Shown piece by piece: positions 4,642 through 49,565 of a stretch of DNA of 64,000 nucleotides. Source of the stretch: Escherichia phage JS98. The stretch is taken from sequence record NC_010105.1. One strand, 5' to 3'. The notes under the pieces were generated by a model. That model saw nothing but the letters and a program-made list of their open reading frames with translations. It had not been told where the DNA came from and ran no database searches. Positions within the stretch are counted from its first letter, which is position 1. Every line of letters starts with the position of its first letter. The position numbers and the translations under genes are program-made.

Positions 4642-4669
4642 TATAGTATCATGTTTAAAGGAGGTGTAA
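4642..4669 (-). promoter_or_regulatory. T4-type early promoter (cassette family TACTATAGxCCTATCAAAACA)
   Basis: Minus strand GTTTACA-16 nt-TACTAT, plus a conserved initial transcribed region. Confidence 0.65.
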
Positions 4670-4706
4670 ACAACTTTGTGAAATTATTTTTAGTTTAAAC
4701 CCCCTA

Positions 4707-4728
4707 AAAGGAGACCAAAGTCTCCTTT
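4707..4728 (-). terminator. rho-independent terminator
   Basis: AAAGGAGAC-loop-GTCTCCTTT, followed on the minus strand by TAGGGGGTTT. Lies 3 nt after the stop at 4731. Confidence 0.6.
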
Positions 4729-4730
4729 CA

Positions 4731-5348
4731 TTATTTACGGGTCTTTTCGAACTGTGCTGCGTCACCTGCAAGGCGGCGGGCTTGACGAAGTTTGTTATCA
4801 ATTTCTTCGTGCATAGGCTGGGTATACTTAAGGCCTTCAACCGTCAGGTAAAGACGATAGAGGTCCGGGGTATCTAGGTTGTTAATGTGCTGCCCATTAC
4901 GAAGGGCGTTGAATTCTCGAACGAGTTGTTTAGTTTCGGATTCGATTTCAGAAACCAAAGAAGCCAGCTGGTTATATTTTTTAACAATAGTGCTGGTGTC
5001 GAACTTGATTTTAGGTTTAGGAGCTTCTTTTACAGGCTCTGCTTTAGGTGTAGGTTTCGGCGCTGCAACTTTGGTCTGAGCCGCGGGTTTAGAAACAGGA
5101 GCTTTAGCTGGTTTAGCAGGCTTAGTAGAGCCACCGGCTACGATATCTTTAAAAGCTTTGGAAGCTTTGTAATATTCTTTCTGGCTACTAGTATCAAAAC
5201 CATACATATCATAAACGTTTTTAAAGAACTCGGTAGTGGTTTTAGTCCCGGAAATTTTATCATAAGCAGCTTGCCACATATCTTTAGTCATGCGCACGCC
5301 GGCTTCATTCAGAACGCTTTCGTTCAAAAATTCATTGTAAGTTTTCAT
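4731..5348 (-). CDS. internal head protein-like (IPIII-like) with capsid-targeting leader
   Basis: N-terminus MKTYNEFLNE matches the T4 IP leader MKTYQEFIAE, including the L-x-E prohead-protease site. Lys/Pro/Ala-rich basic core. TATAAATA late promoter upstream. Confidence 0.7.
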   Translation of the reverse strand: MKTYNEFLNESVLNEAGVRMTKDMWQAAYDKISGTKTTTEFFKNVYDMYGFDTSSQKEYYKASKAFKDIVAGGSTKPAKPAKAPVSKPAAQTKVAAPKPTPKAEPVKEAPKPKIKFDTSTIVKKYNQLASLVSEIESETKQLVREFNALRNGQHINNLDTPDLYRLYLTVEGLKYTQPMHEEIDNKLRQARRLAGDAAQFEKTRK

Positions 5349-5366
5349 TATTGTTTCCTGTGTTAA

Positions 5367-5374
5367 TTAACTTA
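5367..5374 (-). promoter_or_regulatory. late promoter TATAAATA
   Basis: Exact TATAAATA 19 nt upstream of the ATG at 5348. Part of the repeated cassette. Confidence 0.7.
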
Positions 5375-5380
5375 TCTATT

Positions 5381-5402
5381 TATACAAAAAGGCCCAACCT
5401 TT
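5381..5402 (-). terminator. rho-independent terminator (repeat cassette copy 1)
   Basis: GGCCC..CCTT-loop-AAGG..GGGCC, then TTTTTG on the minus strand. Confidence 0.65.
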
Positions 5403-5417
5403 CGGAAGGGCCGTAAA

Positions 5418-5972
5418 TCAGTTCTTGTAGAACCGGAACGGGTTCACGTGGAAGGCCAACATAGCTTTAGGGATTTTACGAGACAAAAGACTCTTAAGCT
5501 TCCAGCCACAGTACACGCGAAGGTAAAATGTGATTCCGCCGACCTTAAGATAAGGAACTGAAGCAAATACACCCCAGGCGTCATCATTCCACATCCACAA
5601 CCAACCATGGTGAGCTTTATCAGGAGAACCTGATTCTACGTCAGGATTACCACGATAATGGAATTCCGAGCTACAATCACGGCCTAGTTTATGATAAGCA
5701 AAGTTATAAGCTTTATTTCGCCATAGCCAAGCTACTCTCTGGAGATAAACACCACCAGGCATTTTCCTGATTTTAGCCCAACGTTTAATATGACCTTTAT
5801 CGCCGTCAATTGGATTATCGTATGTCATCATCCAATCAAAACCGTATGGCAATTTACCAGTCTTTTTATTATGAAAAGGAACCACAAAAGGCGCAAGGAT
5901 AACGGCTAGAACCATAGAGATAAAATCTAGTGGGACCAACAGAATCCAACTCAAATATTTTAAAAGTTTCAT
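5418..5972 (-). CDS. N-terminally membrane-anchored Trp-rich protein of unknown function (184 aa), late-expressed
   Basis: ORF track. TM segment LSWILLVPLDFISMVLAVILAPFVVPF. Own TATAAATA promoter. Flanked by repeated terminator cassettes. Confidence 0.65.
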   Translation of the reverse strand: MKLLKYLSWILLVPLDFISMVLAVILAPFVVPFHNKKTGKLPYGFDWMMTYDNPIDGDKGHIKRWAKIRKMPGGVYLQRVAWLWRNKAYNFAYHKLGRDCSSEFHYRGNPDVESGSPDKAHHGWLWMWNDDAWGVFASVPYLKVGGITFYLRVYCGWKLKSLLSRKIPKAMLAFHVNPFRFYKN

Positions 5973-5998
5973 ATTATTTCCTAAGTTAGTTTACTGTA

Positions 5999-6006
5999 TA
6001 TTTATA
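5999..6006 (-). promoter_or_regulatory. late promoter TATAAATA
   Basis: Exact TATAAATA 27 nt upstream of the ATG at 5972. Part of the repeated cassette. Confidence 0.7.
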
Positions 6007-6013
6007 CAAAAAA

Positions 6014-6035
6014 GGCCCAACCTTTCGGAAGGGCC
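6014..6035 (-). terminator. rho-independent terminator (repeat cassette copy 2), end of the tRNA/ncRNA transcript
   Basis: Hairpin identical to 5381-5402, followed by TTTTTTG on the minus strand. Confidence 0.65.
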
Positions 6036-6039
6036 TTTA

Positions 6040-6205
6040 ACCTAGGGTAACCTTGTCGGGGTTCCACCTGCTAGGCAAGTGTTCTGTGCGCCGTTTCAGC
6101 TGTGAGATAAGGGACTTTAAGAGGAACTCATGTACTCCTTAAAGTCGGGTCTTATTCAGGGAACTTCAGTCCGACGACTTACCGGTAGCGACCCGGTTTC
6201 TTGTT
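6040..6205 (-). ncRNA. candidate stable structured RNA(s), positional analogue of T4 rnaD/rnaC
   Basis: About 165 nt non-coding stretch between tRNA-Arg and a terminator. Several hairpins, e.g. GACTTTAAGGAG...CTCTTAAAGTC and CACTTGC-CTA-GCAGGTG. In T4, stable RNAs follow tRNA-Arg. Confidence 0.35.
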
Positions 6206-6281
6206 TGGTCGAGACAGTAGGGATCGAACCTACGACCTACGGTTTAGAAGACCGTTGCTCTTCCTTCTGAGCTATGCCTCG
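6206..6281 (-). tRNA. tRNA-Arg (anticodon UCU)
   Basis: Hand-folded cloverleaf. Acceptor CGAGGCA/TGTCTCG, anticodon arm ACGGT-CTTCTAA-ACCGT, T-loop GTAGG-TTCGATC-CCTAC, encoded CCA. Confidence 0.85.
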
Positions 6282-6285
6282 TATT

Positions 6286-6360
6286 TGGCGGACATGCATG
6301 GATTCGAACCATGGACCAATTGATTAACAGTCAACTGCTCTACCGCTGAGCTACACATCC
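6286..6360 (-). tRNA. tRNA-Asn (anticodon GUU)
   Basis: Hand-folded cloverleaf. Anticodon arm GTTGA-CTGTTAA-TCAAT, T-arm CATGG-TTCGAAT-CCATG, encoded CCA. Confidence 0.8.
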
Positions 6361-6364
6361 AAAT

Positions 6365-6438
6365 TGGTGGCCCTGGGTGGAATCGAACCACCATCCAGCG
6401 ATTATGAGTCGCTCGCTTGACCGTCCAGCTACAGGGCC
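6365..6438 (-). tRNA. tRNA with CAU anticodon (elongator Met or lysidine-type Ile2)
   Basis: Perfect acceptor GGCCCTG/CAGGGCC, anticodon arm AGCGA-CTCATAA-TCGCT, T-arm GGTGG-TTCGATT-CCACC, encoded CCA. Lacks initiator features. Confidence 0.8.
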
Positions 6439-6443
6439 TTAAT

Positions 6444-6710
6444 TTAAATTACAAATCCAGCAGGAGCATTATCGTCTTTAGCCATGTGCTGAATTGTATG
6501 ATAAGTCATTTCTTCAGGAGCAACCAGATAAGCCGCAGCATTAACTAGTGGAATTATTTTTGGTTTAGCGAATGTGCTATCGGCAATTGCCATAAAGGGC
6601 TCGCCGTCGGTCTCAACTTCGCCAAATTGGCATTCATATGAAATAGAACAACGTTTAGTAGTTGTTGTCTTGGTTTCTGGGTCATAAAAAGCTAATTTTA
6701 ATACTAACAT
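6444..6710 (-). CDS. hypothetical protein (88 aa)
   Basis: The ORF-track start is a GTG. The ATG at 6710 has a GAGG SD 5 nt upstream. Confidence 0.55.
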   Translation of the reverse strand: MLVLKLAFYDPETKTTTTKRCSISYECQFGEVETDGEPFMAIADSTFAKPKIIPLVNAAAYLVAPEEMTYHTIQHMAKDDNAPAGFVI

Positions 6711-6839
6711 AAACACCTCAAATAAAATTAAGTAAAGTAAGTTTGATTAATAGACCTTGTCTATTATGAAAGGCTCTTTGAGGGAAGAACCTTTGGTAAT
6801 AGAGGGTATTAATGATAGAGTAATAATATCACATAATTC

Positions 6840-7325
6840 TTAAAGCATATCAAGTGCTTTCACATCAGGGATTTTAATTTCTTCTTCAATAATATACAGC
6901 TTAACGTAAGAAATTACACGGATGAAATCACCATCATATTCACAAGCCATACCAAGGAGCTCAGTAAGGGCTTCATTCAAGTAGTATTCTTCTTCGTCAT
7001 CGTTCAGCAAGGCTTCTAAGTCTTGGATACCGAGGACTTTATCTAAAAATTCAGGAGTCAATTGGCCTGATTTTACACCAGATTCAATGTGGGCAATAAC
7101 CAGATGCTTAACTACGTCCCATTCCGAATTACCACATTTATCCGGGTTGTTGCAATGAGAACCATGGAAAAGTTCTAGGATATATTTGTACTGTTGGATT
7201 TCATGTTCTTCTACGCCAAATACAGTCTGGGTTTTATAGTTATCGCCATCATTTTCCCAGGTTTCAATTTCAATTGCATAACCTTTAGGGATAATTTGTC
7301 CGAATTTAATATTCATTGTGGCCAC
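6840..7325 (-). CDS. hypothetical acidic protein (161 aa)
   Basis: ORF track. Overlaps and is coupled with the upstream gene. Confidence 0.6.
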   Translation of the reverse strand: MATMNIKFGQIIPKGYAIEIETWENDGDNYKTQTVFGVEEHEIQQYKYILELFHGSHCNNPDKCGNSEWDVVKHLVIAHIESGVKSGQLTPEFLDKVLGIQDLEALLNDDEEEYYLNEALTELLGMACEYDGDFIRVISYVKLYIIEEEIKIPDVKALDML

Positions 7326-12273: not shown

Positions 12274-12876
12274 ATGCTCTTCTCATTTTTCGATCCTATC
12301 GATTACGAATCAAAAACAGTCAAGCCAGATTCCGGCTCATTAACAAATGCCGATGTATTGAGCGTGCCGATGACTGATATATTTAGAAATTATAAAGAAT
12401 ACTTTGATAGAGTGGCTAAAAATTATACACTAAAAACTTATTATATCAATGGAGCCCCGCGTCCGGAAGAATTAGCCCATCTTCTTTATGGCAATGTCCA
12501 ATTATATTGGGTTCTACTGATGTGTAATAATATATACGACCCGTATTATGGATGGATTACCGGCCAAGAAGCCGCCTACCAAGCAGCCATCCAAAGATAT
12601 TCTACTGCTGGTGGAAACCAGGTCCTTTACCATGTAAACGAAAAAGGCGAGAAATTCTGGAATCTTGTCAACACACCGGAAAATCCGTATACTTGGTATG
12701 ATAAAGGCGATACAGAAAAACGCTATCCTCAATACGAAGGCCCATTGGCCGCAGTAGATATTTACGAGGATGCTATTCGCAAAAATGAATATAAGCGCGA
12801 AATAAAAATTATAGACCCTAATGATATTGAGTCTTTTATTTCTGCTCTTATTCGTGAAATGGAGAAAGCCCTCTAA
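12274..12876 (+). CDS. 53: gp53 baseplate wedge protein
   Basis: Synteny immediately upstream of gene 5, size, and a late promoter at 12239-12246. Confidence 0.85.
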   Translation: MLFSFFDPIDYESKTVKPDSGSLTNADVLSVPMTDIFRNYKEYFDRVAKNYTLKTYYINGAPRPEELAHLLYGNVQLYWVLLMCNNIYDPYYGWITGQEAAYQAAIQRYSTAGGNQVLYHVNEKGEKFWNLVNTPENPYTWYDKGDTEKRYPQYEGPLAAVDIYEDAIRKNEYKREIKIIDPNDIESFISALIREMEKAL

Positions 12877-14618
12877 TGATTAACATGTCTGATAATTTAA
12901 GTTGGTTCGTCGGTGTAGTTGAAGACCGAATGGACCCACTCAAACAGGGCCGAGTACGCGTACGCGTCTGGGGTATGCATCCATATGAAAAAGTACAAGG
13001 TCCTGTAAAAGGCCTTCGTACAGAAGATTTACCATGGATGTCGGTATTAATGCCTACATCTTCTGCCTCTGTTTCAGGTATCCAAACCGCTATGACTGGT
13101 ATGGTCCCAGGTACACAAGTTTATGGCCATTTTCTTGATAAGTGGAAATTAAACGGGCTTGTCCTCGGCACATATGGTTCAGCTTCAAAACAAAAGGCAA
13201 ATCCAAACGAAGGTTTTAGTGACCCAACAGGACAGTATCCGCTTTATTTAGGTAATGATGCCGCTGCACTAAACCGAGGCGGTGAAGTTGGATATGATGC
13301 CACTTCTAACGTAATACAAGATGCAAACACTGATGTAGGTATTAATCCTGACGGTTTGGATTTAAGCCAAGTTAAGCCTGATGATAATCCTAATTTCACA
13401 ATAGAAAACATGCTTCATCGTGATGAGGGTCTTCGTCTGAAGGTATATTGGGATACCGAAGGATATCCTACCATAGGTATAGGTCACCTTATTACTCCAC
13501 AACCTATTAGAGATATGAATCAGATAAACAAAATATTATCTAATCAAATAGGTCGAGAAGTTAAAGGTAACCCTGGTGCAATATCAATGGACGAGGCTTC
13601 TAAGTTATTCCAAGAAGACCTTAAAAAAGTTCAAAACGATATAGGCCGGCATAGTGTTGTAGGTCCTGTTTACAATAAAGAAAACCGTTCAAGACAAATG
13701 GCTCTTGAAAACATGGCTTTCCAAATGGGTTTAGGTGGACTTGCTAAATTTAAAACGATGCTCGGTGCAATGTTAGTCGGAGATTATAAGAAAGCATTTG
13801 ATGCCGCTCGTGATTCTGTATGGTTTAACCAAACTAAAGGCCGTGCCTCAAGGGTATCAATGATTATCCTTACAGGTAATATGGAATCATACGGTATTAT
13901 GGCCCCTAAAGAAAGAGAATTTAATGGCCGTTCTTATAGGATGATTCAAACCTTTGCAGCCCCTACAAATTCTGACCCTGCCGACCCGTGGACTCCGGAA
14001 GATACAAGGATTCTTTTTAAAGAACCTGATTCTAGTTATAAAGGCGAATACCCATATGTCCAAACCATGCAAACTGAAGGCGGGCATATCCAAGAATTCG
14101 ATAACACCCCAGGGCAAGAACGTTACCGATTAATCCACCCTACAGGTAGTTATGAAGAAGTCGCTCCTGACGGACGTAAAACTTCTAAGACGGTAGCCGA
14201 CGGGTATTATATGACCCAAGGCGATTCTAATACTTATGTTGGTGGTAATAATAAAGTCAATATAGGTGGCGATGAAACCTATTATAATATGGCAAACGTT
14301 CGACGTCAAACTGACGGTTCTGAAAGCATCCATATTCGTGGTAATGAAACCAAAACGGTAGAAGGCGACGGGACCCTTATTGTTAAAGGAAATGTTACGG
14401 TTATTGTTGAAGGCAATGCTGATATAACTGTTAAAGGTGATGCAAAAACCTTAGTCGAAGGCAACCATGATTATACAGTAAATGGAAATGTTAAGTGGTC
14501 GGTAAACGGAAACGTCGATATGACTGTTGCCGGTAATTGGTCTGAAACTATGTCGACTATGAGTTCTATTGCGTCCGGTCAATATACTATTGATGGTTCG
14601 AGGATTGACATTGGCTAA
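12876..14618 (+). CDS. 5: gp5 baseplate hub / tail lysozyme / cell-puncturing device
   Basis: Near-identical blocks to T4 gp5: WFVGVVEDRMDPLK, lysozyme core EGLRLKVYWDTEGYPTIGIGHLI, C-terminal VxGxxxxx beta-helix repeats, and the end QYTIDGSRIDIG. Confidence 0.97.
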   Translation: MINMSDNLSWFVGVVEDRMDPLKQGRVRVRVWGMHPYEKVQGPVKGLRTEDLPWMSVLMPTSSASVSGIQTAMTGMVPGTQVYGHFLDKWKLNGLVLGTYGSASKQKANPNEGFSDPTGQYPLYLGNDAAALNRGGEVGYDATSNVIQDANTDVGINPDGLDLSQVKPDDNPNFTIENMLHRDEGLRLKVYWDTEGYPTIGIGHLITPQPIRDMNQINKILSNQIGREVKGNPGAISMDEASKLFQEDLKKVQNDIGRHSVVGPVYNKENRSRQMALENMAFQMGLGGLAKFKTMLGAMLVGDYKKAFDAARDSVWFNQTKGRASRVSMIILTGNMESYGIMAPKEREFNGRSYRMIQTFAAPTNSDPADPWTPEDTRILFKEPDSSYKGEYPYVQTMQTEGGHIQEFDNTPGQERYRLIHPTGSYEEVAPDGRKTSKTVADGYYMTQGDSNTYVGGNNKVNIGGDETYYNMANVRRQTDGSESIHIRGNETKTVEGDGTLIVKGNVTVIVEGNADITVKGDAKTLVEGNHDYTVNGNVKWSVNGNVDMTVAGNWSETMSTMSSIASGQYTIDGSRIDIG

Positions 14619-26463: not shown

Positions 26464-28719
26464 ATGATTAACAAATTGGAACTTAGTGAGTTACCATTTG
26501 TTGACGGCGTACCTGATGCTCCTCAAAAGCGTATCCAATGGATACGCGAGGGTGATTGTATGTCTGCAGCAAAAACAAAATACGGCAATGAAGGTAATTT
26601 GAACGCTGCTGCTTTAGGAGTTCAGAAAAACGTAGAAGCTCTTGATGCCAACGATTTAAAAACTGCTGATAAAGTTAATGAGCTTATAGAAAACGTTAAT
26701 AATATCAATGACGCTTTAGAAATGTCAACAGATATTTCTATCATTCAACAAATAGAGAAAAACCGTGTTGATATTGTAGACCTTAAAAAAGTCACCGAAG
26801 ATACAACAGAAAAATTAGACACCTTAACAACCAATTTTGATTTCTTGCGTGAAGATGTTGGATACCATGACCCTTTACAAGACGGCCCATATTTAACTGT
26901 ACGTGAAAATATTGTTCTTCTTAAAAATGAAATTGGTCACTATGAGGACCAGGATATAAACGGTAATCCTTTACCTCCGGGTGAAACTAGTGAAGCCACT
27001 GGTATAAAACGCCGCATCATGGATAATACCACTGAATTGGTGGACCACCGTCTTCGTATTGATACCCTTGAAAGAAACTATGAAGATTCTGATGTTGGGC
27101 AATTAGGTATTAAACTAAATGAAATTCGTGCCGAATTAGGACCACATTCTGATACGGTAGGTAAACAACCCGCTTACACCCGAATTTCAGTATTAGAAAC
27201 GGCTGCAGTTAATTTTAATACGGCTATTGACGAAATTAAGGATAATATTGATTTCTCTGGTATGCCTATAAAGGACCGAGTAACTACTTTAGAAAGCAAA
27301 ACCTTTACCTTAGAAAATTCAGTTAACGTTGATTTAAAACCTAGAGTAACTTCTATAGAAACTCAAATCGGTTCTGAGTCTGCACCAGCATCTATTAATG
27401 GACGTTTAAGTGGGCTTCGTACTGATGTAAATGATTTAAAAACCGTTGTTGGTAATAGTTCTAGTGAAGGGCTTCGTTTCCAGGTTTCCGATATTAATCG
27501 ACGCCTTGGTAGTGAAGTGTCTCCTGCAGCTGGCACTATTAATAAGCGTTTGAATGATGTTATTATTCAAGCAAACCAATCTACCTCATCCATCCAGGAT
27601 ATTCAGGTAGAAATTGGTAACAACCAATCCGGTATAAAAGGTACTTTGCTTAAGCTCACAAATAAGGTTGACGGAACGAACCCTAACGGAGCTACCGTAG
27701 AAGAACGTGGTCTTATTAATGCGGTTACTTCTTTAGAAACCCAGATGCAAGGTAAATTAGGTGACGCGCCTTCTGATGGTAAACTCTATGCACGTCGAAA
27801 TGCGGCATGGGCTGAAGTTGTTAATAATTCCACAGAAATAGAAACTGTTAAAGCCGATTTGGTTGTTACTAATGGTAAAGTGACCGCTTTAACTTCTAGA
27901 GTAGATGATAACGATACTTCTATTTCATCTCTTAATACTCGCACCACTGCTCTAAATACTTCGGTTGGTGAGATTAAAGCCGATATAGTTACTATAAAGG
28001 CCAAAGATGTTGAACAGGACGGTCGTTTAACTTCTTTGGAAGAGGCTGATGTTACTATTAACGGTAAAATTGCTGCTCTTGAAACTAAGACAGATACCAC
28101 TGATGATGATGTCACAGCACTGGCTTTAGACGTTTCTTCTTTAGAGAACCAATTGACTCCTATAAAAGCCGATATTACCAAAAACAAAGGTGATATTGTT
28201 GCCTTAACTGGTCGAGTGGCTTCTACTGAAGGTGAAATTACCGCAATTAAAGTTGATACAGCCAAAATTGCTCCTTTAACAACTAGAGTTACTACGGCAG
28301 AAGGTAAAATCACTACTTTAGAAACAGGGCTTGCCGCTGTTAAAGTCGAATCCGATAAAGTAGCAGGAATCAATACCCGCCTTGGCACTGCAGAAGGTGA
28401 CATCGGAACACTTAAAACAGGGTTGGCTGAAGTTAAGGGTGAATCCGATAAAGTAGCAGCTATAGATACCCGTTTGGGTGTTGTTGAAGGCGAAGTTGGT
28501 ACTCTTGAAACAGGTTTGGCTGCTGTTAAAGTTGAATCTGATAAAGTTGCTGACTTAGGAACCCGTTTAACCGCTGCCGAAGGTAAAATTACAGCCTTAG
28601 AAACAGAATTATCTAAACGTCCACCGGTGGCTCCTGCCGCAGACGGACTTCCGTATGTTCTGGTTGATAACGCATGGGTATTATTGTCTGATTTTGTGAC
28701 TTTAAACTCAGCACCATAA
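26464..28719 (+). CDS. wac: fibritin (whisker/neck fibre), enlarged
   Basis: Position between 12 and 13. Segmented coiled coil. C-terminal foldon-like GLPYVLVDNAWVLLSDFV. Confidence 0.88.
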   Translation: MINKLELSELPFVDGVPDAPQKRIQWIREGDCMSAAKTKYGNEGNLNAAALGVQKNVEALDANDLKTADKVNELIENVNNINDALEMSTDISIIQQIEKNRVDIVDLKKVTEDTTEKLDTLTTNFDFLREDVGYHDPLQDGPYLTVRENIVLLKNEIGHYEDQDINGNPLPPGETSEATGIKRRIMDNTTELVDHRLRIDTLERNYEDSDVGQLGIKLNEIRAELGPHSDTVGKQPAYTRISVLETAAVNFNTAIDEIKDNIDFSGMPIKDRVTTLESKTFTLENSVNVDLKPRVTSIETQIGSESAPASINGRLSGLRTDVNDLKTVVGNSSSEGLRFQVSDINRRLGSEVSPAAGTINKRLNDVIIQANQSTSSIQDIQVEIGNNQSGIKGTLLKLTNKVDGTNPNGATVEERGLINAVTSLETQMQGKLGDAPSDGKLYARRNAAWAEVVNNSTEIETVKADLVVTNGKVTALTSRVDDNDTSISSLNTRTTALNTSVGEIKADIVTIKAKDVEQDGRLTSLEEADVTINGKIAALETKTDTTDDDVTALALDVSSLENQLTPIKADITKNKGDIVALTGRVASTEGEITAIKVDTAKIAPLTTRVTTAEGKITTLETGLAAVKVESDKVAGINTRLGTAEGDIGTLKTGLAEVKGESDKVAAIDTRLGVVEGEVGTLETGLAAVKVESDKVADLGTRLTAAEGKITALETELSKRPPVAPAADGLPYVLVDNAWVLLSDFVTLNSAP
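28276..28620 (+). repeat. 3.7 tandem copies of a 93-bp (31-aa) unit inside wac
   Basis: Units start at 28276, 28369, 28462 and 28555. Peptide unit is xxTRLxxAEGxIxTLxTGLAxVKxESDKVAx. Confidence 0.85.
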
Positions 28720-28720
28720 T

Positions 28721-28742
28721 AAAAGGGCTTCGGCCCTTTTTT
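28721..28742 (+). terminator. rho-independent terminator after wac
   Basis: AAAAGGGC-TTCG-GCCCTTTTTT. Confidence 0.8.
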
Positions 28743-28744
28743 GC

Positions 28745-28752
28745 TATAAATA
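28745..28752 (+). promoter_or_regulatory. late promoter TATAAATA (gene 13)
   Basis: Exact octamer just after the wac terminator, 22 nt upstream of the ATG. Confidence 0.75.
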
Positions 28753-49542: not shown

Positions 49543-49565
49543 GGGCCCAACCTTTCGGAAGGGCC
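49543..49565. terminator. terminator hairpin (repeat cassette copy 3) between uvsW.1 and the uvsY-side genes
   Basis: GGGCCCAACCTTTCGGAAGGGCC, with CTTTTTG on the minus strand. Same hairpin as at 5381 and 6014. Confidence 0.6.

Follow-up and report, generated by a model that had tools for sequence, protein, structure and literature searches.

Gene content of the locus

The window analyzed here, a 64,000-nucleotide stretch of Escherichia phage JS98 (NC_010105.1), is from the genome of a Dhakavirus, a T4-like phage genus. On its minus strand, three tRNA genes (tRNA-Met, tRNA-Asn and tRNA-Arg(tct); 6206-6438), called by ARAGORN and matched by Rfam, are followed by a stable-RNA region (6036-6205) recognizable by its similarity to T4. 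Here a homologue of T4 rnaD (77% identity over 126 nt) is joined to the 3' flank of T4 rnaC, with 25 of 27 positions matching the sequence downstream of rnaC. The tRNA cluster is transcribed toward the first of two regulatory cassettes, and the stable-RNA region ends at the hairpin with which that cassette begins. An Rfam search of positions 5300-7000 (E up to 1) returned the three tRNAs only, with no match for the hairpin or the stable-RNA region.

Between the two cassettes lies a 184-aa ORF with an ATG start (5418-5972, minus strand), whose product belongs to the Pfam family DUF7338 (PF24027, E = 4.6e-63; phrog_2143, E = 1.1e-79). It is followed on the same strand by a 205-aa gene (4731-5348) that resembles those of internal proteins (IPs): its N-terminus, MKTYNEFLNE, is similar to the capsid-targeting sequence of T4 IpII and IpIII, and its product matches phrog_2280, a PHROG without an assigned function. 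Genes similar to e.8 and e.6 are located farther downstream.

In T4, the insertion site corresponds to a 284-nt spacer that separates rnaC from e.8. An earlier note on this DNA had instead placed the ORF in the interval of T4 e and its neighbors, with ipIII as its neighbor. Neither assignment can be kept. In the congeneric phage JS10, both e and a true ipIII, which is beside e, are found about 7.7 kb farther downstream, and replacement of e by the DUF7338 gene was therefore rejected. The resemblance of the 205-aa protein to internal proteins is confined to the N-terminus, and a tblastn search of the window with T4 IpIII (E 1e-3) gave no match, so that this gene is not considered to be ipIII. 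The only T4-e-like sequence in the window was also rejected as an endolysin gene, since it is the lysozyme domain of a gp5-like ORF.

A repeated hairpin and probable late promoter

The DUF7338 ORF is bracketed by near-identical direct repeats of 36 and 37 nt, namely TATTTATACAAAAAGGCCCAACCTTTCGGAAGGGCC at 5377-5412 and TATTTATACAAAAAAGGCCCAACCTTTCGGAAGGGCC at 5999-6035, which differ solely by one extra A. Beyond the repeats, a similarity of about 75% extends along the 5' leader up to each ATG. The earlier note had described this arrangement (a repeat consisting of a hairpin, a U-run and a late promoter, present on both sides of the 184-aa ORF at 5418-5972), and the repeat sequences, their folding and the positions of TATAAATA agree with it. 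Its coordinates for the upstream copy (6000-6035) are exact; those for the other are 10 nt too low, as the string that it gave starts at 5378 rather than 5368.

On the minus strand, both cassettes read hairpin, T5 or T6, G and then TATAAATA. The 22-nt hairpin sequence GGCCCAACCTTTCGGAAGGGCC occurs exactly three times in the window (5391-5412, 6014-6035 and 49544-49565), as compared to none in 100 dinucleotide shuffles. The simple pattern scan for promoters and terminators did not call these hairpins, owing to the 2x2 U.U internal loop that lies within their 5-bp outer stem, and they were then assessed by RNA folding against shuffled sequences, which gave energies of -14.7 to -17.8 kcal/mol and z-scores of -2.8 to -3.75. 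The upstream hairpin (6014-6035, minus strand; GGCCC UU CC GAAA GG UU GGGCC, an exact 22-mer; -17.8 kcal/mol, z -3.75) is followed by U6 at 6013-6008. The downstream one (5391-5412, minus strand; -15.3 kcal/mol, z -3.1), positioned 5 nt past the DUF7338 stop codon, is followed by U5 at 5390-5386. Both cassette copies thus have the form of an intrinsic terminator, a GC-rich hairpin directly before a U-run, and are presumed to terminate the tRNA/stable-RNA transcript and the DUF7338 transcript, respectively. The third copy (49544-49565, minus strand), also an exact 22-mer followed by U5, is found between convergent uvsW.1-like (+) and uvsY.-2-like (-) genes and has no TATAAATA late promoter attached. 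Homologous hairpins are present 3' of rnaC in both T4 and phage KAW1E185, and in the latter they carry a terminator annotation.

Both cassettes contain the exact octamer TATAAATA, of which the window has 18 copies where 7.7 would be expected. The first (5999-6006, minus strand) precedes the DUF7338 gene with a 26-nt leader (5998-5973), and the second (5377-5384, minus strand) precedes the internal-protein-like gene with a 28-nt leader; each leader includes an AGGAAA Shine-Dalgarno sequence. The two sites have the form of a T4 late promoter, with an exact TATAAATA, no -35 element, a short leader and a Shine-Dalgarno sequence. No sigma-70-type -35/-10 pair is found at the cassettes, and the lone sigma-70-like call (6000-5973) scores 9/12, a level reached at background frequency. 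We infer from these consensus matches that the cassettes act as terminator/late-promoter elements and that the genes behind them are expressed late.

Terminator-plus-late-promoter composites are a general design in this genome, with a third one at about 28715-28752, and the upstream copy corresponds to a conserved terminator that follows the stable RNA in T4 as well. The two cassettes could therefore be read as independently required signals around an ancestral gene that was lost from some phages by random deletion, with no mobility of the cassettes. Their function, however, does not demand 36/37 identical bases, and the third composite is built on an unrelated hairpin. The distribution of the gene among related phages, described below, makes this explanation highly improbable.

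Presence, absence and breakpoints among relatives

Six close relatives lack the DUF7338 gene, and each of them retains exactly one cassette. In CLB_P2 and IME08, the empty site reads stable RNA, hairpin, T6, TATAAATA and then the leader of the IP gene. A probe corresponding to the empty site matches in one piece in dhaeg, dhabil, CLB_P2, IME08, SHP1 and C6, and splits into two pieces about 620 bp farther apart in UP19, IME281, EcWhh-1, Esco_phi_B-01, AnYang and MN04. Homology to window positions 5250-5550 stops at 5412 in six empty-site phages and starts at 5386 in approximately 12 others. Both positions coincide with an edge of the hairpin plus A-run, and breaks at these edges are thus seen in about 18 phages in total. 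Absence of the gene with one cassette kept and a break in homology at the repeat is the pattern that the earlier note had expected. Independent signals and random deletion do not account for six phages with exactly one cassette and junctions in register, nor for breaks at the hairpin edges in so many genomes. The presence of the gene also does not track the similarity of the neighboring gene, which is 96% identical in IME08, where the DUF7338 gene is missing, and 91-92% identical in AnYang and KIT01, which have it.

Other phages show shuffled arrangements. In JS10, the DUF7338 gene is found between two hairpins and the IP-like gene is missing. In QL01 and vB_EcoM_005, it is located downstream of a different IP-like gene, which in QL01 has a DUF7338-type leader; another hairpin and no TATAAATA precede the DUF7338 gene in these two phages. 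In JS10, QL01, vB_EcoM_005 and the Mosigvirus LF82-5, discussed below, the downstream copy of the cassette hairpin is followed by an early promoter of the form GTTTAC-N17-TG.TA..AT. The downstream cassette copy is missing altogether in VR5. The earlier note would have counted the gene in another context without the repeats against its own reading. Such cases exist in QL01, vB_EcoM_005, VR5 and distant phages, and the repeats are therefore not obligatory, but the precise breakpoints described above still stand.

The patchy distribution might also be due mainly to co-conversion by homing endonucleases out of the tRNA cluster, analogous to marker exclusion of the SegB type, in which case the cassettes would be incidental boundaries. 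T4 encodes segB within its tRNA cluster, and homing endonuclease genes are also present in the tRNA cluster of KAW1E185 and, in AnYang, about 380 nt upstream of the module. Most of the carriers examined (the window, UP19, JS10, KIT01 and VR5), however, have no endonuclease gene in the cluster. Conversion tracts would be expected to vary in their ends, yet the endpoints observed coincide with the hairpin. This model also leaves the module at a second locus, near rI, unexplained, and we give it very little weight.

A second locus and other genomic contexts

In LF82-5, which belongs to another genus, a DUF7338 gene with 75% identity is found at a different locus, immediately behind rI, with a copy of a homologous hairpin, GCCCCTTCCGAAAGGTTGGGGC, on either side; the two copies are identical. 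The upstream hairpin is followed by T5, G and TATAAATA and by a related leader, and the downstream hairpin by the early promoter mentioned above. The unit of hairpin, late promoter, leader, gene and hairpin thus recurs behind rI in Mosigvirus, which argues that it is a portable and insulated late transcription unit and again speaks against independently required signals. Movement of the gene by way of portable cassettes had been suggested in the earlier note, and finding the gene together with its cassette at the rI locus supports this view. Taken together, these findings make it likely that we are dealing with a late transcription unit that is self-contained and portable and lies in a hyperplastic region of the Dhakavirus genome.

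A related possibility is that recombination at this site is not homologous in the general sense but site-specific and integron-like, with the GGCCC/GCCCC...GGGCC/GGGGC hairpin recognized by a phage or host protein. The module is delimited by this hairpin at both of its loci, in two variants of the hairpin sequence; the promoter joined to the hairpin is late in some phages and early in others, and the breakpoints fall at the hairpin edges. Arbiol et al. consider this idea and point to T4 deletions that have GGGC/GCCC motifs at their ends (PMC2839356). There is no candidate recombinase nearby, however, the 36 nt of identity is sufficient for T4-type homologous recombination, and the hairpin is present in only 2-4 copies per genome. 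Site-specific recombination is therefore improbable, although homologous and hairpin-targeted recombination leave the same sequence signature. It is similarly doubtful, though conceivable, that the GGCCC/GCCCC-UUCCGAAAGGUU-GGGCC/GGGGC hairpin is a dedicated mobility signal of T-even phages, recognized by its structure like attC, and that single-gene modules insert at resident copies and are re-timed by a late or an early promoter, the cargo here being a new late protein of envelope or lysis control.

More distant DUF7338 homologues occupy quite different contexts, some of them far from any tRNA gene. The gene is co-directional with and inside tRNA arrays, with spacers of 4-100 nt, in Felixounavirus, an E. 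coli-derived phage contig, the Otagovirus phiPsa347 and Roomu-2, and is directly 3' of tRNA genes in Dhakavirus, Gaprivervirus and STP4-a. It adjoins the lysozyme gene in phiAS5 and is near the endolysin gene in STP4-a. In one case it is the last gene at a prophage end, after those for the tail fibre and its chaperone. The metagenomic surroundings of three distant homologues offered no informative context. DUF7338 genes thus accompany lysis or tail-fibre genes, or are embedded in tRNA arrays, in many phages of Gram-negative bacteria.

The DUF7338 protein

The match to PF24027 scores 212.6 bits against a cut-off of 27 and aligns residues 1-183 with profile positions 1-179 of 180; the matching PHROG, phrog_2143, is a family without an assigned function. 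The earlier description of an N-terminally anchored, Trp-rich product is accurate. A single hydrophobic helix, conserved, strongly hydrophobic and 27 residues in length, spans residues 7-33 approximately (the Kyte-Doolittle 19-residue maximum is 2.33, at residues 11-29), and the Trp content of the protein is 5.4%. C-terminal to this helix is a conserved basic, Trp-rich domain. W82, R85, N86 and G156 are invariant in the family. The net charge of the domain is +14 here, with a family median of +7 and positive values in 102 of 108 members. At the flanks of the helix, the charge is +2.4 on the N-terminal side and +0.6 for the first 15 residues after it, but the domain as a whole is strongly basic, and the topology read from these charges is ambiguous.

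An AlphaFold2 model has a pLDDT of 95.7, and comparison with the PDB, both by sequence and by fold of the model, found no match among solved structures. The family comprises 851 clusters at 50% identity. In a Pfam scan, 108 diverse members all matched DUF7338 only, with no second family and no fused domain. A literature search returned no paper mentioning DUF7338 or phrog_2143, and the homologue in Bas63 (MZ501086), bas63_0153, is not mentioned in the main text of the PhageMaP preprint. The family is widespread and dispensable, its model is confident and no solved structure is related to it, which makes it a tractable target for study.

The product is an accessory protein, as sister phages are viable without the gene. 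It is possible, but only as a tentative suggestion, that it is a late protein anchored in the inner membrane with a role at the cell envelope or in the control of lysis. This suggestion derives from gene context in other phages only, where homologues are found beside rI, beside endolysin genes and after tail-fibre genes. The periplasm-facing orientation and the part in lysis, superinfection exclusion or envelope modification that the earlier note proposed are likewise no more than guesses. A more specific version, that it is a holin or another core lysis protein, is very unlikely. Some Felixounavirus records and UniRef do label homologues as holins, the late promoter and the N-terminal hydrophobic helix would be appropriate, and the gene's positions beside lysozyme (phiAS5), near endolysin (STP4-a) and after rI (LF82-5) would be as well. 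However, a core lysis gene should not be missing from viable sister phages; the protein matches no holin family in Pfam or PHROGs, only DUF7338 and the function-unassigned PHROG; and its 150-residue domain with invariant W/R/N/G/K positions resembles a binding or catalytic domain. Nor is the gene adjacent to e in Dhakavirus (in JS10, e is 7.7 kb away), and the literature search found no experimental support for the holin labels.

The strongly basic domain, rich in aromatic residues, and the location of the gene inside or directly after tRNA arrays in several phage groups could alternatively point to a cytoplasmic domain with an RNA- or tRNA-related role. Such a role seems unlikely, given the conserved, strongly hydrophobic N-terminal helix, the general tendency of tRNA arrays to be hot spots for accessory genes, and the homologues that are distant from any tRNA gene.

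A model for expression and exchange

Based on the arrangement of the signals, transcription of the operon containing the tRNA and rnaD-like genes would end at the GC hairpin plus U6 (6035-6008). Two bases on, TATAAATA (6006-5999) would start a short-leader monocistronic mRNA for the 184-aa DUF7338 protein. That mRNA would in turn be ended by the identical hairpin plus U5, 5 nt past the stop codon, and the second TATAAATA would restart late transcription for the internal-protein-like gene.

The two cassettes form direct repeats spaced 622-623 bp apart, so that homologous recombination from one copy to the other should produce a precise deletion of the gene, with one cassette left behind. The deletion would probably be carried out by the phage's own recombination system, which is tolerant of short homologies, and the predicted excision circle would be 622-623 bp in length. 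As a precedent, ORFs flanked by promoter-early stem-loops (PeSLs) are excised in the form of mini-circles, and homologies shorter than 50 bp suffice for T4-type recombination (PMC2839356). Insertion should occur by the reverse reaction or by exchange with any genome that has a resident copy of the hairpin, and the conserved terminator of the tRNA/stable-RNA operon would be such a copy. The recombination pathway, like the activity of the signals, is deduced from the sequences. Since filled and empty sites, several rearranged versions and an additional insertion locus can all be found in sequenced phages, the locus offers a natural example of accessory-gene trading in T4-like phages. Because one hairpin is paired with either promoter class, the arrangement may provide a simple route by which a gene can be moved and re-timed while its neighbors are left undisturbed. 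For phage engineering, the cassette may mark an insertion site that is naturally tolerated and transcriptionally insulated.

Relation to known exchange systems

Morons, described in lambdoid and other phages by Hendrix and colleagues, are autonomous units of promoter, gene and terminator inserted between two genes; their definition comes from temperate phages, in which the prophage is usually the source of their expression. The unit described here similarly places one accessory gene, together with a promoter and a terminator for it, within an otherwise conserved gene order, and the homologue that is last after the tail-fibre genes at a prophage end is reminiscent of morons as well. Unlike morons, it has a lytic late promoter, and its mobility would be explained by the flanking direct repeats. 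By analogy, the cassettes of integrons likewise consist of one promoterless or simple ORF bounded by an imperfect palindrome (attC), with a proposed cycle of circular excision and renewed insertion where a resident site is present; there is no integrase here, and the likeness is one of analogy only.

Conserved elements also flank the hypervariable IP loci of T-even phages (Repoila et al. 1994, as summarized in PMC2839356). From that summary, they share with our cassettes the phage group and the neighborhood, with IP-like genes on both sides of the tRNA region, and the proposal that short conserved regulatory sequences mediate single-gene swaps. As summarized there, those elements are based on early promoters and have weak, AT-rich stem-loops, whereas the present ones have a GC-rich stem and a late promoter, and the cargo in the window is not an internal protein.

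The closest known system is that of the PeSL cassettes of T4-type phages (Arbiol, Comeau, Krisch 2010, PMC2839356; Comeau et al. 2014, PMC4122927). In both systems, composite terminator/promoter elements with a stable intergenic stem-loop of terminator form flank single non-essential ORFs in hyperplastic regions, indels between close relatives end in the elements and leave one at the empty site, and excision and integration via a small circle is proposed. The copies in the window differ in having the late promoter TATAAATA instead of an early, sigma-70-type -35/-10 promoter. The term 'late promoter' does not occur in either PeSL paper, and the PeSL idea would thus be extended from early-promoter cassettes to a terminator/late-promoter cassette. 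Further differences are that the stem-loop here is always 5' of the promoter and has a bona fide terminator shape, that there are only a few copies per genome rather than the dispersed PeSLs of RB49, and that the upstream copy also serves the tRNA/stable-RNA operon as its conserved terminator. A true PeSL is present in the window as well, 650 nt downstream (4643-4728, minus strand), where it precedes the e.8-like gene. It has the classical composition, with a GGAGACTTTGGTCTCC hairpin (-15.2 kcal/mol, z -4.15), T4, an A/T-rich stretch and an early-promoter-like GTTTAC-N17-TGATACTAT.

A repeated cassette around a single gene

A cassette that reads on the minus strand as a hairpin, a U-run and a late promoter occurs twice near one end of the window. 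Positions 5377-5412 are TATTTATACAAAAAGGCCCAACCTTTCGGAAGGGCC, and positions 5999-6035 are the identical string with one additional A (36 and 37 nt). The repeat proposed in an earlier note is real; its second interval was given exactly, and its first should lie 10 nt higher. The 22-nt hairpin core has exactly three copies in the 64 kb (5391, 6014 and 49544) and none in 100 dinucleotide shuffles. Both cassettes run from the hairpin through U5 or U6 and a G into TATAAATA, an octamer with 18 occurrences in the window against 7.7 expected. The hairpin RNA is GGCCC-UU-CC-GAAA-GG-UU-GGGCC, with a folding energy, flanks included, of -14.7 to -17.8 kcal/mol (z-scores -2.8 to -3.75). A strict terminator pattern scan did not call it, solely because of its U.U internal loop.

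The two copies enclose a single minus-strand ORF of 184 aa (5418-5972), here called the DUF7338 gene after its Pfam family. Its ATG lies 26 nt from the upstream TATAAATA and is preceded by an AGGAAA Shine-Dalgarno sequence, and 5 nt separate its stop codon from the downstream hairpin. Cassettes and gene together have the predicted anatomy of a late transcription unit that is monocistronic and insulated, for which promoter activity, terminator activity and late timing are read from the sequence. A third terminator-plus-late-promoter composite is present on the plus strand at about 28715-28752, where an unrelated hairpin, GGGCTTCGGCCC, is followed by T6, GC and TATAAATA, with an ATG 21 nt downstream of the octamer. 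The terminator/late-promoter design thus recurs, while the 36-nt identity around the DUF7338 gene remains special.

Genomic setting and comparison with T4 and JS10

The window belongs to a Dhakavirus (T4-like) and is 98.9% identical to phage UP19 in the region examined. In minus-strand order, tRNA-Met, tRNA-Asn and tRNA-Arg come first, followed by a 170-nt stable-RNA region (6036-6205) homologous to T4 rnaD and the 3' flank of rnaC. This region, which no Rfam family covers, matches T4 rnaD at 77% over 126 nt and runs straight on into the sequence found downstream of T4 rnaC, without the rnaC body. Next are the cassette at 5999-6035, the DUF7338 gene, the cassette at 5377-5412 and a 205-aa gene whose N-terminus, MKTYNEFLNE, is like that of T4 internal proteins (IPs). 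A classical promoter-early stem-loop (PeSL)-type element (4643-4728, minus strand) then separates this gene from the e.8-like and e.6-like genes, which close this list. It consists of a GGAGAC...GTCTCC hairpin, a T-run, an A/T-rich stretch and GTTTAC-N17-TGATACTAT.

The corresponding T4 site is the 284-nt spacer from rnaC to e.8, which starts with a homologous hairpin, GCCCCGACCGAAAGGTTGGGGC-T5, and is without TATAAATA. The upstream copy is therefore the presumed terminator of the tRNA/stable-RNA operon, old and conserved. The earlier positional argument, which set the gene in the T4 interval of e and ipIII, was mistaken on both counts: e and ipIII lie together about 7.7 kb further downstream in JS10, and the supposed ipIII neighbour is the 205-aa gene, which has no similarity to IpIII. 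Displacement of the endolysin by the DUF7338 gene was rejected, as e is still present in JS10. Also rejected as an endolysin gene was the single stretch of the window that resembles T4 lysozyme (42% identity to T4 e), which is the lysozyme domain of a gp5-like baseplate hub ORF (12876-14618, plus strand, especially 13401-13892).

Empty sites and breakpoints among relatives

CLB_P2 and IME08 have no DUF7338 gene and a single cassette, which lies between the stable RNA and the IP-gene leader. An empty-site probe gave one uninterrupted match in each of six phages (dhaeg, dhabil, CLB_P2, IME08, SHP1 and C6); in carriers the match was split in two, with the parts about 620 bp further apart. With window 5250-5550 as the probe, homology stops at 5412 in the six empty-site phages, while in about twelve others it begins at 5386. 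The two breakpoints coincide with the edges of the hairpin plus A-run. Presence and absence with breakpoints in the repeats, the comparison that the earlier note had proposed, is thus what relatives display. The gene is dispensable, given the sister phages that lack it.

Other arrangements also occur within the genus. JS10 has the DUF7338 gene between two hairpins, the downstream one followed by an early promoter, and is without the IP-like and e.8-like genes. In QL01 and vB_EcoM_005, the gene is downstream of a different IP-like gene and behind another hairpin without a late promoter; in QL01, that IP-like gene has a DUF7338-type leader. In VR5 (L008, about 2380-2470), the same PeSL-type element as at window 4643-4728 and a 3'-end remnant of the 205-aa gene directly follow DUF7338, a deletion that did not use the cassette. 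Presence or absence of the gene does not follow how similar the neighbouring gene is, so several events must have occurred.

A second locus is found in Mosigvirus LF82-5, where a DUF7338 gene of 75% identity immediately follows rI, at the position of T4 rI.-1, flanked by two identical GCCCCTTCCGAAAGGTTGGGGC hairpins. After the upstream hairpin come T5-G-TATAAATA and a related leader, and after the downstream one an early promoter. The unit of hairpin, late promoter, leader, gene and hairpin therefore moves as a block. This block, with the single cassette at empty sites, supports and extends the earlier reading of a portable regulatory cassette.

In Tequatrovirus KAW1E185, an IP-like gene occupies the same place as the DUF7338 gene, between two hairpin variants that are both annotated as terminators. 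Their stems are near-identical and their loops complementary on the same strand (L025 1959-1980, GAAA, versus 2516-2537, TTTC); one copy looks as if it were inverted, as a near-palindromic hairpin would tolerate. In some relatives the tRNA cluster contains a homing endonuclease gene, located upstream of the module position by a few hundred nt (AnYang, L005 3242-3907; KAW1E185, L025 3915-4565; segB in T4, L026). By annotation alone, the AnYang stretch has no tRNA genes.

Relation to PeSL cassettes and a possible mechanism

Among known systems, the PeSL cassette of T4-type phages comes closest (PMC2839356, PMC4122927). Shared features are the hyperplastic-region setting, single-ORF cargo, indel endpoints within the elements and one element remaining at empty sites. 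Unlike PeSL, which is defined by a sigma-70-like early promoter, the window element has a late promoter, and neither PeSL paper mentions late promoters. The element works like PeSL and is classed as a variant, not a member, because it lacks this defining feature. There is also a likeness to the moron concept and, by analogy alone, to integron cassettes. The principle of such cassettes is already established; the comparative series here is unusually clean, and the DUF7338 family is a good target.

T4-type recombination needs less than 50 bp of homology, and PeSL-flanked ORFs have been shown experimentally to excise as mini-circles (Arbiol et al., PMC2839356). Direct repeats of 36 and 37 nt, 622-623 bp apart, would be adequate substrates. 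Recombination between the two copies would leave empty sites, and insertions could arise by the reverse reaction or by exchange at a resident hairpin in mixed infection. Judging from the sequence, the pathway may be general or hairpin-targeted.

The DUF7338 family and its possible role

The 184-aa protein matches Pfam DUF7338 over its full length (E 4.6e-63) and also belongs to PHROG 2143, both families without an assigned function. DUF7338 is a large family, with members in 591 phage records and 851 clusters at 50% identity, and is spread across many phages of Gram-negative bacteria, including T4-like phages of several genera, Felixounavirus, Pseudomonas and Aeromonas phages, jumbo phages and one prophage. 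Among the sampled matches there is no record from T4 or another Tequatrovirus, and T4 has no DUF7338 gene at either insertion locus examined.

Members are nearly always stand-alone proteins of about 180 aa. A conserved, strongly hydrophobic N-terminal helix is followed by an interfacial Trp-rich stretch and then T-x-D-N-x-x-D-G-D; W-L-W-R-N is invariant, and G-W-K is a further motif. The net charge is basic (+14 in the window protein, family median +7). In phiAS5, the gene follows the tail fibre, directly upstream of a lysozyme gene; in STP4-a, it is three genes upstream of the endolysin; in LF82-5, it comes after rI; at a prophage end, it is the final gene, preceded by the tail fibre and its chaperone. 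As a favoured working guess, held tentatively, the protein may be a late inner-membrane-anchored factor with a role at the envelope or in controlling lysis. A few records are labelled "holin"; no support was found for these labels, and a true holin is very improbable.

In at least four lineages the gene is embedded in tRNA arrays, which may reflect a hot spot used by both, joint mobility of the gene and tRNA genes, or a functional connection. A cytoplasm-facing protein with an RNA-related role is an unlikely alternative to the envelope or lysis-control guess. The embedding is co-directional, with spacers of 4-100 nt, in Felixounavirus (including Bas63 gene bas63_0153), an E. coli-derived phage contig and Pseudomonas phages phiPsa347 and Roomu-2; the STP4-a gene lies 127 nt after tRNA-Arg. 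Six stretches from other phages have the gene in or beside such arrays (L010 4001-4558, L029 7961-8518, L016 6001-6558, L023 3004-3570, L024 2995-3555 and L012 2995-3555).

Elsewhere in the window, a tandem row of five small paralogous ORFs (74, 69, 65, 93 and 96 aa), all without a Pfam match, occupies 1048-2290 on the minus strand. Each closes with W-[VFL]-[SN]-S-S-x-x-C, whose Cys is the C-terminal residue, and the first has a 21-residue insertion between its W-L-N-S-S motif and the terminal C.
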